A stretch of 32,000 bases of DNA from Candidatus Electrothrix yaqonensis (GCA_047651235.1 CP178758.1:1440001-1472000), one strand, 5' to 3'. Positions 22,275 to 32,000 are shown, counted from the stretch's first letter. Notes: generated by a model from the sequence alone, not told the origin. A program made the numbers and translations.

Positions 22275-22901
22275 TCAGCCCAGTTCGATCTTTTTATCGC
22301 TCTTCAGATTCATTCTTTTTTCTGCGTCAAAGAAACCGTCTTTGGCTTGGACCGTATATTCTCCCTGCACCCGGCATTGCATTCGGCCGAGCCGGGCATC
22401 TTCATCCCGAATTCGGCGATAAAGCCGGTTCACCCGCTCGACCATCCCCTTTGCCTGCATTTCCACGGTCTGATACAGAGAACGCAGCTGTCTGCCGCAG
22501 GCTGTGAGCAGCTCACCGGCAAAGGCAAAATTGCTGATCTTCATGCCGCCCCGGTCTGCCTGCAGGAAAATTTTCCGCGTCAGCAGGTTGATACCGTAGC
22601 GGCCTTCAAAGGATAGATTACCTTCGCCTTTGATCTGCAGGTCGCCGTCCACAGAGACCATTGCCGATTGCCCCGCCTTTCTTTCCAGCACCGTCAGAAT
22701 ACTGATATGACCAAAGCCGTCTTCCGAAATCAGCACCAAATCATCCTGTTCCGGCTGAAGCAGGCAGCCTGCAGCACGCTCGGCCCGCATCAGGCTGAAA
22801 GAGTCAGCGACAAAATAGATGGTCCCGCTGATGCGCTGCACCAGAGCACTGCGCAGGCGGACATCGCTTGTCTTTTCGTGAAAAGGAATGGCCGTTTTCA
22901 T
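22275..22901 (-). CDS. DUF3540-like protein, paralog b
   Basis: The 208-aa ORF shares AAGCLLxPExDDxVL, LxADRG, RLYRRIRxExxRL and a C-terminal IELG with the ORF at 28304-28924. These blocks match my recollection of the DUF3540 family. Confidence 0.6.
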   Translation of the reverse strand: MKTAIPFHEKTSDVRLRSALVQRISGTIYFVADSFSLMRAERAAGCLLQPEQDDLVLISEDGFGHISILTVLERKAGQSAMVSVDGDLQIKGEGNLSFEGRYGINLLTRKIFLQADRGGMKISNFAFAGELLTACGRQLRSLYQTVEMQAKGMVERVNRLYRRIRDEDARLGRMQCRVQGEYTVQAKDGFFDAEKRMNLKSDKKIELG

Positions 22902-22922
22902 TGATTCGAAATCATTTCGATC

Positions 22923-23327
22923 TCACCGCCGGAGCAGCACCTTTTCCTGACTCGGCACGGTGCAGCTCCCGGTGCAGTTCGGGCAAGTGCCGTTCTGACC
23001 GGTGCTGCTGCCGAGAGCCACAGCCGGTGCTCCTTCGATAAGCACCGCATTGCTGCCGGACAGGAAACAGGCCGGTCCCCGGAAAACCCCGGAAGCCACT
23101 CCGCCTGCGGTACCGGCCTCGTTGCCGTTGCTCTGGGCAATGGTGGTGTTGAGATGGAGCGCGTTCATCCCGTTGACAAAGACCTTGGATGAAAACGAGC
23201 CAGACGCGGCAAGGCAGCATTCTGCCGTGTTGGTATAGGGAACCGGCAGGACACCGCCCGGCCCCGGTGTTTTGCAGACATCCGGGAAACCTGTGCATTT
23301 GCCGCCTTCAAGGGTGTTGATAAACAT
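22923..23327 (-). CDS. DUF4150 (PAAR-like) domain protein, short form without a toxin extension
   Basis: The sequence is MFINTLEGGKCTGFPDVCKTPGPGGVLPVPYTNTA...SNGNEAGTAGGVASG...GSNAVLIEGAPAV...PSQEKVLL. The FPDVCKTP, PxPYxN, GDEAG-like and PSQxKV blocks are DUF4150 hallmarks. The ATG at 23325-23327 has a GAGGTA Shine-Dalgarno. Confidence 0.8.
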   Translation of the reverse strand: MFINTLEGGKCTGFPDVCKTPGPGGVLPVPYTNTAECCLAASGSFSSKVFVNGMNALHLNTTIAQSNGNEAGTAGGVASGVFRGPACFLSGSNAVLIEGAPAVALGSSTGQNGTCPNCTGSCTVPSQEKVLLRR

Positions 23328-30008: not shown

Positions 30009-30012
30009 AGCG

Positions 30013-32000
30013 TCATACCGGCAGTTTTATGGCAAACAGGGTGGCGTCCAGATTGGTTCCATTCAGTAGGGTATGTCGGAGGGCGGCCTTATACAGATCA
30101 GCACCGTAGAAGTTGGCATCGCAGCAGTTACTTCCTTCAAGCCGGGCATGACGGAAGCGGGCCTTGAAGGCGTTGCTTTTGTACAGCGAACTCTGGCGCA
30201 GATCACTGTGCATCAGGTTGGCCTGCCGCAGCGAGGTGCGGCTGAAATCTGCCCGGCGGAAATCACATTGAGCCAGCATGGCCCGGTCAAGCATCCCGTG
30301 CCGGAGAACGGCATCCGGAAACGCGGATTCGCTCCAGGCAAGCTGTGCCATTTCCGCCTCACTGAAATCAGCCCTGAGCAGCGAGGTGCTGTTGCATTTG
30401 GACCGGCTTAACTTGGCTCTGCAGAAGATCACCTCTTCGCCTTCAGCCTCGGCAAACCAGGCGCCTTCCAAATTGCCGCCGGAGAAATCCGCTCTATCCA
30501 GCAAAGCCCGGTTGAAATTTACCCGGCGCAGATCCGCCTCCGCACAACGGACTGCGGTGAGATCGGCTCCCTTGAAACCGGCCTGCTGCAGATCGGCTTT
30601 GCGGGCATCGACCTCTGTCAGCATACAGGCATCAAATTCAGCCCGAATTCCCTTGACCTCTGCCAAACAGGCGCGGCTGAAATCACTTGTATCAAACCGG
30701 GCTTTGCGCAGATCAGCTCCGGTAAAATCAGCACCGCTCGCCAGCATTGCCGTAGCAACGCAATCTTGGAGACGGATGCCGGTCAGCACGGCATCGGAGC
30801 AGTCTGCCCTGCTGAGCAAGGCTCCGCTGCAGTCCGCCCTGCGCAGCGAGGTTCGGCTGAAGTTTACCCCTTCAAGCACAGCCCCCCGAAAATCAGCCCG
30901 GTCCAGCTTCACGCCGGAAAGATCCAGGCCACTCAGATTCAGCCCGGCCAGAGACCGGCCACAGGCATGGGCCGCCAGCACCTCCTCTCTGGTCATGACC
31001 GCAGTCAGGGGTAGATTACTGCCCGGCCTGTCCGGCTGGTTTTTAGGTTCCGCACCGCCGCTCTGCTGCGCTTGGCGTTCAAGGGCCTGCATTTCAGCAA
31101 ACAGTGCCTTATCCTCAATGCCGTAGGATTTCATGGCGGCAATGGCCGTGGCAATGCGGGCACTGCTGTTTTTCTTTGCAGGTTTGCCTGCCTGTGCGAG
31201 GATGCTGTCTGGCTGCAGATCTTTCGGGTTCAGCCCTGTCCGCAGCAGCATGGTATCCAGCTTCTTATGCAGATGCGCGGACCGTTGGGCAAGGCGGGCC
31301 GGGGTCAGCGGTTTAGCTCCCTTTCCGGCTTGGGCAGCAGCCGACTGTCCGAGCAGCTCATCTGCCGAGATGCCGAAGGCAGCCAGCAGCGGGGTCAGTT
31401 TTGTCTTGGCTGCTGCTGTTTTTTCCGCAATGGCAGCAGCAACCGGGTCGAATTCCGGAGTACCACCTTTGGCCTCAGCAGCTGTTGCTGCTTCCTCTGC
31501 TTTTGACGATGAGTCAGATTCCGGTTCCGGCTCATCAACGGCTACCTCTTCTGCCTCTGCATCCGGCAGCCCGAAGATACCGGCATAGCAGATACCTGCC
31601 TCGGCAGGTGGTTCAGCCAGCGGTTCCAGGGCAGCGGCAAGATAATAGGCATCCGTGTCCCATTCCGGCAGGTGAGCCAGTCCGGCCCGCCAGATCAGGA
31701 TGCCGGTTTCATGGTCGGGAAACAGCCAGAGCGTATCCAGGCGGCATTGCAGCTCAACAAAGGTGTGCTCTGCGGCATGATTGCCCAGAAAACAGCGGCA
31801 ACGGCGACCGGGGAGCTGTGACTCTATGCGGGAACGCTCAGGGTGCAGATTGTGCAGCAGCACCGGTTCATCCCCCTGGAAGAAACCGGGAAAGCGCTGA
31901 TCCAGCGGGGCCAGCTGGAACAGCCGGGGAGAGGCATCCGCAGGCGGTTTGGGCCAGCGGCGGGCAAGCCAGTTTTTGTCGAGGCCACCGACAAGAGCGC
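30013..32000 (-). CDS. DUF2169-like domain fused to a low-complexity linker and a pentapeptide-repeat domain (5' end lies outside the window)
   Basis: The frame is open to the window edge (..RLFQLAPLDQRFPGFFQGDEPVLLHNLHPE..). DTLWLFPDHETGILIWR resembles the C-terminal part of DUF2169. An Ala/Glu/Lys-rich linker of about 200 aa follows, then about 300 aa of pentapeptide repeats. Confidence 0.7.
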   Translation of the reverse strand, partial: ALVGGLDKNWLARRWPKPPADASPRLFQLAPLDQRFPGFFQGDEPVLLHNLHPERSRIESQLPGRRCRCFLGNHAAEHTFVELQCRLDTLWLFPDHETGILIWRAGLAHLPEWDTDAYYLAAALEPLAEPPAEAGICYAGIFGLPDAEAEEVAVDEPEPESDSSSKAEEAATAAEAKGGTPEFDPVAAAIAEKTAAAKTKLTPLLAAFGISADELLGQSAAAQAGKGAKPLTPARLAQRSAHLHKKLDTMLLRTGLNPKDLQPDSILAQAGKPAKKNSSARIATAIAAMKSYGIEDKALFAEMQALERQAQQSGGAEPKNQPDRPGSNLPLTAVMTREEVLAAHACGRSLAGLNLSGLDLSGVKLDRADFRGAVLEGVNFSRTSLRRADCSGALLSRADCSDAVLTGIRLQDCVATAMLASGADFTGADLRKARFDTSDFSRACLAEVKGIRAEFDACMLTEVDARKADLQQAGFKGADLTAVRCAEADLRRVNFNRALLDRADFSGGNLEGAWFAEAEGEEVIFCRAKLSRSKCNSTSLLRADFSEAEMAQLAWSESAFPDAVLRHGMLDRAMLAQCDFRRADFSRTSLRQANLMHSDLRQSSLYKSNAFKARFRHARLEGSNCCDANFYGADLYKAALRHTLLNGTNLDATLFAIKLPV

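Follow-up and report, generated by a model that had tools for sequence, protein, structure and literature searches.

A probable Class III Tvp module for spike assembly in Candidatus Electrothrix sp. YB6, in the putative head half of a divided type VI secretion supercluster

Class III Tvp systems and the Electrothrix locus

Three syntenies of DUF2169 genes have been distinguished, of which type C comprises a DUF2169-pentapeptide fusion, a pentapeptide protein, a DUF3540 protein and a DUF4150 protein, and DUF2169 was found to bind and chaperone the DUF4150 'PIPY' tip, enabling VgrG loading (Sachar et al., 2025; PMC11883445). The same four families are encoded between position 22275 and the end of a 32,000-nucleotide (nt) stretch of the genome of Candidatus Electrothrix sp. 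YB6 (CP178758.1, 1440001-1472000), which is called the window below and supplies the numbering except where another contig is named. Very probably, a type VI secretion system (T6SS) supercluster has been split in YB6, and this region is its head half, which carries a Class III Tvp module for spike assembly. The organism is a cable bacterium with a closed genome of 3,738,687 bp and a mean GC content of 51.3% (PMC12093952); a T6SS in cable bacteria is not described in the literature searched.

In Serratia marcescens, TvpAB, TvpB, TvpC (the DUF3540 protein) and Paar1 were each reported to be essential for the VgrG1 pathway (Monlezun, Earl and Coulthurst, EMBO J 2026; PMC13373197). TvpC co-purified with TvpAB, TvpB and Paar1 and never with VgrG1, VgrG1 co-purified with TvpAB, TvpB and Paar1 and not with TvpC, and the proteins were needed for Hcp secretion (PMC13373197). 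Serratia TvpC is predicted to be a trimer with an oligonucleotide/oligosaccharide-binding fold (OB-fold) together with a beta-prism, which makes it a VgrG mimic without gp27; set against VgrG and phage T4 gp5/gp27, it has been described as the gp5-like half. In the published model, a TvpC-based pre-complex caps PAAR, the pentapeptide proteins wrap the tip, and VgrG1 subsequently replaces TvpC; Class III systems occur with small PAARs and long VgrGs, and Thermodesulfobacteriota have such systems (PMC13373197). An earlier note on the YB6 stretch had described the core of the cluster as having no known mechanism, a statement outdated by the publication of the mechanism in 2025-2026 (PMC11883445, PMC13373197). 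The same note was correct in naming DUF2169 as an adaptor for DUF4150 (PMC11883445) and in treating the genes as T6SS spike accessories; of the role that it proposed for the pentapeptide proteins, the scaffold is roughly correct, as these proteins wrap the tip, and the rod-like extension of the spike does not.

Between 22275 and the window end all substantial open reading frames (ORFs) lie on the minus strand, and their products were assigned to families by Pfam profile search of the window ORFs. The first gene, tvpAB (30013..32000, minus strand), is represented by its 3' part: residues ~202-862 of the 862-amino-acid (aa) product fall inside the window, the 5' end lies outside, and the full length was read from an overlapping contig. 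Its DUF2169 match (PF09937, 101.8 bits) covers profile positions 193-294 of 294 only, the N-terminus falling beyond the window end, and the in-window architecture consists of this C-terminal end of DUF2169 (TvpA), an Ala/Glu-rich linker and a pentapeptide-repeat domain (PF00805, 148 bits; PF13599, 105 bits). The full 862-aa protein likewise matches DUF2169, and the DUF2169 match of the ortholog from Electrothrix marina scores 242 bits. After a gap of 4 nt comes tvpB (28935..30008, minus strand), encoding a stand-alone pentapeptide-repeat protein of 357 aa (PF00805, 144 bits) that is 72-88% identical to the same-position orthologs of all Electrothrix loci and 24-29% identical to the product of the same-position gene in the Class III loci of E. 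albertii (Escherichia) and Variovorax. A gap of 10 nt separates it from tvpC1 (28304..28924, minus strand), whose 206-aa DUF3540 product (PF12059, 123 bits, profile positions 2-199 of 199) is 74-89% identical to the orthologs of relatives.

The remaining two genes are separated from tvpC1 by ~5 kb (23418-28236) holding three unrelated genes (618, 711 and 202 aa) and a paar pseudo-fragment. The start codon of paar (22923..23327, minus strand) was set by alignment to the closest-relative locus, L007. Its product, a DUF4150/PIPY-type PAAR-like protein of 134 aa (Tox-PAAR-like PF13665, 109 bits, residues 11-114), has no effector domain, has PVPY at residues 28-31 as its version of the P(I/V)P(Y/F) motif, is 88-96% identical to the PAARs of relatives and shares a 90% cluster with those of eight other Electrothrix species (XOF35004.1). 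A second DUF3540 gene, tvpC2 (22275..22901, minus strand; 208 aa; PF12059, 101 bits over the full profile length), follows 21 nt after paar. The locus thus holds a DUF2169 protein, its C-terminal pentapeptide extension, a separate TvpB, a DUF3540-type TvpC and a small effector-less DUF4150 PAAR, all features of Class III, and the ORFs of the region gave no Pfam or NCBIfam match to DUF6484 or TvpD (PRK06147/thiolase-like). YB6 protein records XOF35003-XOF35011 contain 100% matches for the 711-aa protein, TssH, TvpC2 and PAAR. Scans of 22000-32000 for promoters and terminators returned hits at chance level only.

On the overlapping contig, tssH (clpV) lies 43 nt upstream of tvpAB, just past the window edge and in the same orientation, and is itself preceded by an OmpA-family gene. 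TssH is a 926-aa AAA+ protein that scores 1137 bits with NCBIfam TIGR03345 against a cutoff of 885, with the ClpB model below its own cutoff. The family calls of the earlier note (DUF2169-pentapeptide fusion, pentapeptide protein, DUF3540 and DUF4150; 101-148 bits by Pfam), its placement of all genes on the minus strand and its 4-nt and 10-nt gaps were reproduced, and with these tight gaps the cluster head looks like one operon, as it had proposed. Absent from its account were the non-contiguity of the module, the presence of two DUF3540 genes, the truncation of the first gene by the window and the tssH gene just outside.

A search for TvpC2 homologs returned 18 relatives; all those with an organism name were Electrothrix, and the remainder were metagenomic. 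Six loci from at least five Electrothrix lineages (E. scaldis, from a complete genome, E. aarhusensis, E. marina, two more Electrothrix assemblies and one metagenome contig) share the order ompA-clpV-tvpAB-tvpB-tvpC1-paar-tvpC2-vgrG1. In these relatives tvpC1 and paar are ~26 nt apart, tvpC2 always stands between paar and vgrG1, with 48 nt between tvpC2 and vgrG1, and a conserved gene, termed p255 (255-258 aa), comes after vgrG1 wherever the contig continues. Farther downstream lie hcp and another module, this one in canonical order (vgrG2-tvpAB2-tvpB2-tvpC3...), and beyond it the core in full (tssJ, K, L, M, A, B, C, hcp, E, F, G), giving a T6SS supercluster of ~45-55 kb; a full T6SS core was found near the module in E. 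scaldis, E. aestuarii and E. aarhusensis. The canon with a single DUF3540 gene, vgrG-tvpAB-tvpB-tvpC-paar, was found on an E. albertii plasmid and a Variovorax chromid, and a Thermodesulfobacteriota-like cluster from a microbial-mat metagenome reads tssA-BC-hcp-EFG-clpV-vgrG-tvpAB-tvpB-tvpC-paar-p257, its p257 product (257 aa, after paar) being 50% identical to Electrothrix p255. Compared with this canon, vgrG in Electrothrix module 1 has moved to a place distal to paar and is preceded by an additional TvpC. What is new here is modest: a conserved second TvpC paralog flanking paar, the downstream position of vgrG, and the T6SS of a cable bacterium.

The p255 family closes Class III tvp modules in Thermodesulfobacteriota (comparison loci L003 13396-14172, L005 13502-14269, L008 13402-14169 and L012 18457-19230; NBOLOCMB_00238 in YB6). 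It has no Pfam match, although one source labels a homolog DUF4430, and its position downstream of vgrG1 is that of the immunity protein Vai1 in Serratia.

Among described systems, the Class III locus of S. marcescens Db10 (TvpAB SMDB11_2247, TvpB 2248, TvpC 2249, Paar1; PMC13373197) has the same four families in the same internal order, an effector-less small DUF4150 PAAR, tight spacing at the operon head, a long VgrG partner (902-938 aa) and a T6SS context. Serratia has vgrG1 upstream and one TvpC, whereas Electrothrix module 1 has vgrG downstream and two TvpCs flanking paar; in YB6, moreover, vgrG is at another locus and three foreign genes are inserted. Identity between the Electrothrix proteins and their proteobacterial counterparts is only ~20-41%. 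The Tag nomenclature used in Burkholderia reportedly comes from Shalom et al. in 2007. The tagAB, tagB, tagC and tagD genes are the same genes, with the same domain set and order in T6SS-3, -4 and -5, TagD being an effector-less PAAR-like DUF4150 protein, and both the assembly of the sheath and the secretion of Hcp depend on the Tag proteins (PMC13584744). The Burkholderia loci differ in having a single TagC, vgrG upstream and a host-cell-fusion T6SS.

Class II Tvp systems (synteny type A; Pseudomonas aeruginosa PA0095-PA0099, Vibrio parahaemolyticus VP1395-1399/VP1415, Proteus mirabilis) use DUF2169 as the chaperone of a DUF4150/PIPY tip and build a pre-complex on a small VgrG mimic with an OB-fold, as is predicted for the YB6 module; their DUF6484 mimic, TvpD and toxin-fused PAAR are absent from the region, and Class II has no pentapeptide proteins. 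With Class I (synteny type B; Agrobacterium tumefaciens Tap2/Atu3641 and Tde2) the module shares the DUF2169-DUF4150 chaperone-tip pair, to which the earlier note had referred, but Class I lacks TvpB, TvpC and a pre-complex, and a DNase toxin domain is part of its PAAR.

Separation of the module from vgrG1 in YB6

Sequence comparison with the relatives placed a synteny breakpoint at 22210..22274 (minus strand): likeness stops within ~8 nt of the tvpC2 stop codon, and the next gene after tvpC2 is a livM-type permease gene (20986-22209; Pfam BPD_transp_2, 180 bits). No vgrG, hcp or tss gene was found among the window ORFs, no remnant of vgrG1, p255 or hcp was found in the window, and tblastn of Electrothrix VgrG1, VgrG2, Hcp and p255 against it returned nothing below E = 0.09, so that ORF calls and tblastn agree with the earlier note on the lack of vgrG, hcp and tss genes here. 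On the overlapping contig, too, vgrG is absent, and the locus in this respect departs from Class III; as the absence concerns synteny and not the proteins, the genes are still filed as Tvp homologs.

A full-length VgrG1 of 923 aa is encoded elsewhere in YB6, as entry NBOLOCMB_00237 of the Prokka proteome supplement. This protein (C-terminus ...VDSGSKIILG) shares 85% identity with VgrG1 of E. aarhusensis; with the start of VgrG1 on the contig of the closest relative, L007, the identity is 95%. The genes that precede it are unrelated, and after it come p255 (00238), vgrG2 (00239), TvpAB2 (00240), TvpB2 (00241; 610 aa), the DUF3540 protein TvpC3 (00242; 283 aa) and the DUF4150 protein PAAR2 (00243). 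A third YB6 vgrG (NBOLOCMB_00165) heads an orphan island, 00165-00168, with a 437-aa uncharacterised protein, a PAAR-like/RHS toxin and a small ORF. Because similarity ends after the tvpC2 stop codon and an intact vgrG1 lies elsewhere, the ancestral supercluster appears to have been cut exactly between tvpC2 and vgrG1, the window holding its head fragment; with vgrG1-p255 intact at another YB6 locus, the module would have to act in trans. A DDE_Tnp_4 transposase ORF (16238-16882, minus strand) lies ~5.4 kb from the breakpoint and is a candidate for the agent that separated tvpC2 from vgrG1.

The T6SS genes identified in YB6 are tssH, three vgrG genes, the second tvp module and the PAAR-like/RHS toxin gene; the evidence for tssA-G, tssJ-M and hcp comes from relatives. 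Protein clusters at 90% were tried as a test for presence or absence of the core and rejected. The Hcp, TssE, TssF, TssG and TssK clusters had no YB6 member and the PAAR cluster, used as a positive control, had one; YB6 TssH fell outside the aarhusensis cluster, and YB6 VgrG1 was absent from the clustered collection though present in the Prokka proteome. The negatives are therefore uninformative, since a proven YB6 protein is also missing from the collection.

The five tvp/paar genes and tssH are intact in YB6, and the five module genes are under purifying selection. Pairwise ratios of nonsynonymous to synonymous substitution rates (dN/dS) were 0.07 for paar, 0.09-0.12 for tvpC1, 0.11-0.15 for tvpAB and tvpB, and 0.13-0.18 for tvpC2, and the ratios with YB6 were no higher than those among relatives that keep vgrG1 in place.

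Inserted and neighbouring genes

Next to tvpC1, the first inserted gene (26380..28236, minus strand) encodes a 618-aa protein with a signal-peptide-like N-terminus, a beta-solenoid (DUF7305/ice-binding-like; Pfam DUF7305, 39 bits) and an Asp-rich motif of the thrombospondin-type-3 kind. The product of the second (24229..26364, minus strand), of 711 aa and with no Pfam or PDB sequence match, has a probable signal peptide, a zinc-phospholipase-C/P1-nuclease-like domain with large insertions and four C-terminal Cys-rich knottin-like repeats; some of its homologs match the spider-toxin family PF07740. Both N-termini, as read from the sequence, have a basic stretch and ~20 hydrophobic residues, with an Ala-rich site that resembles a cleavage site. 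In a Labilithrix genome (locus L006), a gene whose product is 37% identical to the C-terminal half of the 618-aa protein lies two genes from a homolog of the 711-aa gene, a proximity that suggests that the pair travels together.

For the 711-aa protein, a 100% match was found in YB6 only; the next best matches, at 35% identity or less, came from Myxococcota, Bryobacteraceae and metagenomes, a patchy spread, and the neighbourhoods of these homologs contained no T6SS genes. Invariant in 59 homologs are H35, D169, H265, H374-x3-D378-x5-H384 and H393-x3-E397. In the superfamily of zinc-dependent phospholipases C and P1 nucleases, the fold is all-helical and His, Asp and Glu residues bind three zinc ions; the spacing of the invariant residues seems to resemble that of the zinc ligands of Bacillus cereus phosphatidylcholine-preferring phospholipase C (PC-PLC). 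The AlphaFold2 (AF2) model has a predicted local distance difference test (pLDDT) score of 82, and its best Foldseek matches were B. cereus PC-PLC and clostridial alpha-toxin, with a probability of up to 1.0 but E ~0.02 and template modelling (TM) scores of 0.37-0.45.

The third gene (23418..24026, minus strand) encodes a 202-aa PD-(D/E)xK protein that matches PADLOC profile PDLC01472 'PD_DExK' (E = 7.9e-49, profile positions 2-145 of 146), a PD-DExK profile associated with clustered regularly interspaced short palindromic repeats (CRISPR), and has no Pfam or NCBIfam match. Between it and the 711-aa gene lies psi-paar (24048..24108, minus strand), a decayed, frameshifted copy of paar nucleotides 35-98 (codons 12-33). 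The alignment has 53 of 61 positions identical (87%) and three 1-nt gaps, and its score of 67 compares with a maximum of 34 in 300 shuffles. This fragment points to an insertion of the nuclease gene into the 5' end of paar, apparently accompanied by a duplication that left a working paar. Such an arrangement recalls homing-type or island insertions that bring a replacement gene end. The mechanical ORF list joins psi-paar to the nuclease ORF through a false GTG start at 24071. Besides the paar fragment, no convincing flanking repeats or target-site duplication were found around the 5-kb insertion. GC content is 45-49% in the inserted genes and 58-60% in the tvp genes; as a sign of foreign origin it was dropped, the tvp genes deviating most from the genome mean.

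The 618-, 711- and 202-aa genes are absent from this junction in all five relatives compared (L002, L003, L005, L007 and L008) and appear to be YB6-specific secondary insertions, passengers and not parts of the Tvp system or of its mechanism. Other lineages carry other insertions. In E. marina (L002, 11668-13433) an AAA_21 and DUF4276 pair matching the PADLOC defence candidate HEC-01 stands between paar and tvpC2, and in E. scaldis (L003, 4304-5197) a gene for a 297-aa membrane protein stands between clpV and tvpAB. The tvp operon looks like a recurrent landing site for insertions.

Outside the window, ~2.4 kb upstream of ompA-clpV and on the opposite strand, the region L018 2409-4617 holds a gene for a protein of 568 aa that ends in a CdiA_C toxin domain (56 bits) and has no Pfam match in its N-terminal 480 residues; the 137-aa ORF that follows is a possible immunity gene, and two PIN/antitoxin pairs adjoin. 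This CdiA_C protein is a possible polymorphic-toxin cargo of the T6SS. Positions 1-21000 of the window hold housekeeping genes (a MiaB-like enzyme, RodA, PBP2, MreC, MreB, a nitrogenase-like protein, HPPK, a DDE transposase and TPR proteins). A tRNA gene at 11973-12045 (plus strand; Rfam RF00005, 63.5 bits), the sole Rfam match, lies between the mreB operon and the nitrogenase-component-1-like gene and is unrelated to the module.

Proposed mechanism, alternatives and significance

By homology to the Serratia system, a trimer of TvpC, of one or both paralogs, would mimic the OB-fold/beta-prism end of VgrG, and the hydrophobic 134-aa PIPY-type PAAR (PVPY) would seat on the tip of this trimer. 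The DUF2169 domain of TvpAB would shield PAAR while its helical/pentapeptide part wraps the prism, and TvpB would close the cap in the manner of a seat belt. The capped PAAR would pass to VgrG1, encoded in trans, which would replace TvpC inside the baseplate; the Hcp tube and sheath would then polymerise, with the chaperones remaining in the cell. Both the physical complexes and the hand-off in Electrothrix we infer from the homologous systems.

TvpC1 and TvpC2 are 34% identical (E = 3e-32). In a neighbour-joining tree they form sister clades (~60% bootstrap), with TvpC3 grouping with the canonical metagenome TvpC, and the sister placement suggests a lineage-specific duplication. In the AF2 monomer model of TvpC2, residues 12-80 (pLDDT 80-92) gave OB-fold matches by Foldseek, so that the OB-fold of the gp5-like half was recovered; the matches were generic OB-folds, and neither VgrG nor gp5 was among them. 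The C-termini of TvpC2 (..LKSDKKIELG) and VgrG1 (..VDSGSKIILG) have the same length and pattern, and that of TvpC1 (..LDG-ERVEIG) is one residue shorter. The C-terminal motif '(K/S)KI(E/I)LG' was considered as a TvpC-VgrG similarity and set aside as an anecdote lacking statistical support, because neither BLASTP nor a hidden Markov model (HMM) search (below) detected similarity between the two families. Our best guess is that TvpC2 provides the pre-complex with an additional scaffold, one adapted to VgrG1; TvpC2 resembles the C-terminal strand of that protein. Perhaps, though we hold this only tentatively, module 1 is a distinct sub-type of Class III Tvp in which two non-redundant TvpCs flank paar and vgrG lies downstream. 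TvpC1 would then nucleate the TvpAB-TvpB-PAAR cap as in Serratia, and TvpC2 would be either a VgrG1-specific intermediate, making a three-step hand-off, or a scaffold that delivers one cap to several VgrGs, acting in YB6 in trans across the split cluster.

Several results weigh against assigning the locus to a working Class III module. The function is assigned by 20-40% identity to proteobacterial components. The cognate vgrG is not in this locus in YB6, and ~5 kb of foreign genes interrupt the operon, leaving spacers of 202 nt and 90 nt that could uncouple the expression of paar-tvpC2. In YB6 (NBOLOCMB_00239-00245) paar2 is directly followed by histidine kinases where relatives carry the tssJ-tssG core block, and the T6SS core appears to have been moved or lost from its ancestral position after paar2. 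TssB, TssC and Hcp peptides were not found in the first ~1,100 of the 3,323 proteins of the YB6 proteome supplement, a portion that lacks the window's own genes too. Lineage-specific amino-acid changes number 97 in YB6 and 65 in its sister (chi-square 6.3), an excess compatible with mildly relaxed constraint or simply with a faster lineage. As to the VgrG mimicry, residues 86-208 of TvpC2, the beta-prism half, have pLDDT below 50 and the prism is not resolved in the monomer model, as would be expected if it depends on the trimer; no sequence similarity was detectable between TvpC and Electrothrix VgrGs, as neither TvpC1 nor TvpC2 had a BLASTP match to VgrG1 of E. scaldis with E below 1 and an HMM built from 19 DUF3540 sequences found no domain above 3 bits in nine VgrGs.

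Part of this evidence, namely the break right after tvpC2, the ~5 kb of foreign DNA with the paar pseudo-fragment inside the operon and the YB6 excess of amino-acid changes, would also fit a relic: after the separation of vgrG1 and the insertions, the module would have fallen out of use in YB6 and be decaying, with ORFs intact only because these events are recent. To this may be added the core, unseen in the first third or so of the YB6 proteome and missing at its ancestral site after paar2, and the 90% cluster of Hcp, which spans three Electrothrix species and has no YB6 member, although that absence is uninformative, the certain YB6 VgrG1 being missing from the same collection. We consider decay unlikely, as none of the five tvp/paar ORFs is truncated, nor is tssH, dN/dS (0.07-0.18) is not above that of vgrG1-retaining relatives, the duplication that came with the insertion left a working paar copy whole, and YB6 retains an intact vgrG1, p255, second module and vgrG-Rhs island. 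A function outside type VI secretion altogether, with the DUF2169, pentapeptide, DUF3540 and DUF4150 proteins forming a self-contained complex, is scarcely credible. The co-oriented tssH gene 43 nt upstream argues against it, as do the relatives, in all of which these genes stand between clpV and vgrG1 and belong to a full T6SS cluster, and the Serratia homologs, which were co-purified with VgrG1 and without which Hcp is not secreted; in its favour are the lack of vgrG, hcp or sheath genes in the window and a core documented only in relatives. The earlier note had allowed for an orphan island or independence from T6SS and had proposed looking for vgrG directly upstream. That position is taken by tssH, and in relatives vgrG1 lies downstream of tvpC2; the adjoining tssH, the relatives' T6SS supercluster, and the vgrG1 and two further vgrG genes of YB6 speak against both proposals. 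It had also tied the T6SS interpretation to the presence of vgrG or a T6SS in the genome, and this interpretation stands, since YB6 has vgrG genes.

Phospholipases and PD-(D/E)xK nucleases are common classes of T6SS effector. The 711-aa zinc-phospholipase-C-like protein with its 618-aa partner, or the PD-(D/E)xK nuclease, or both, might on this ground be effectors brought to the PAAR/VgrG tip, and their genes do lie inside the operon, near paar, in a class of systems that encode PAAR and effector separately. Such a cargo role is nevertheless quite improbable. Both large proteins start with probable Sec-type signal peptides, normally lacking in T6SS cargo, their homologs in Myxococcota and metagenomes are not beside T6SS genes, no other Electrothrix carries the genes, no candidate immunity gene lies alongside, and the nuclease matches a CRISPR-associated profile. 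The unrelated insertions elsewhere in the operon of E. marina and E. scaldis are better explained by a site permissive for insertions than by cargo.

The assignment to a Class III Tvp module, which we regard as very probable, is chiefly of corrective value: a cluster flagged as mechanistically unexplained is a textbook Class III Tvp/TagAB-TagD module with a working model. The split in YB6, together with the differing insertions in three lineages, indicates that the tvp operon can withstand being interrupted and being parted from its vgrG, which helps to define the linkages that function requires. The duplicated and conserved TvpC offers a natural test of the VgrG-mimic pre-complex model, namely whether one scaffold is enough or whether the scaffold must match its VgrG; if the two-scaffold sub-type is real, the split YB6 cluster would show that Tvp-VgrG pairing is independent of gene co-location. 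Cable bacteria are multicellular, centimetre-long, electrically conductive filaments, and their large T6SS superclusters contain two Tvp modules, several vgrG genes and Rhs toxins; a cable-bacterium T6SS bears on how these filaments compete and interact with their neighbours.

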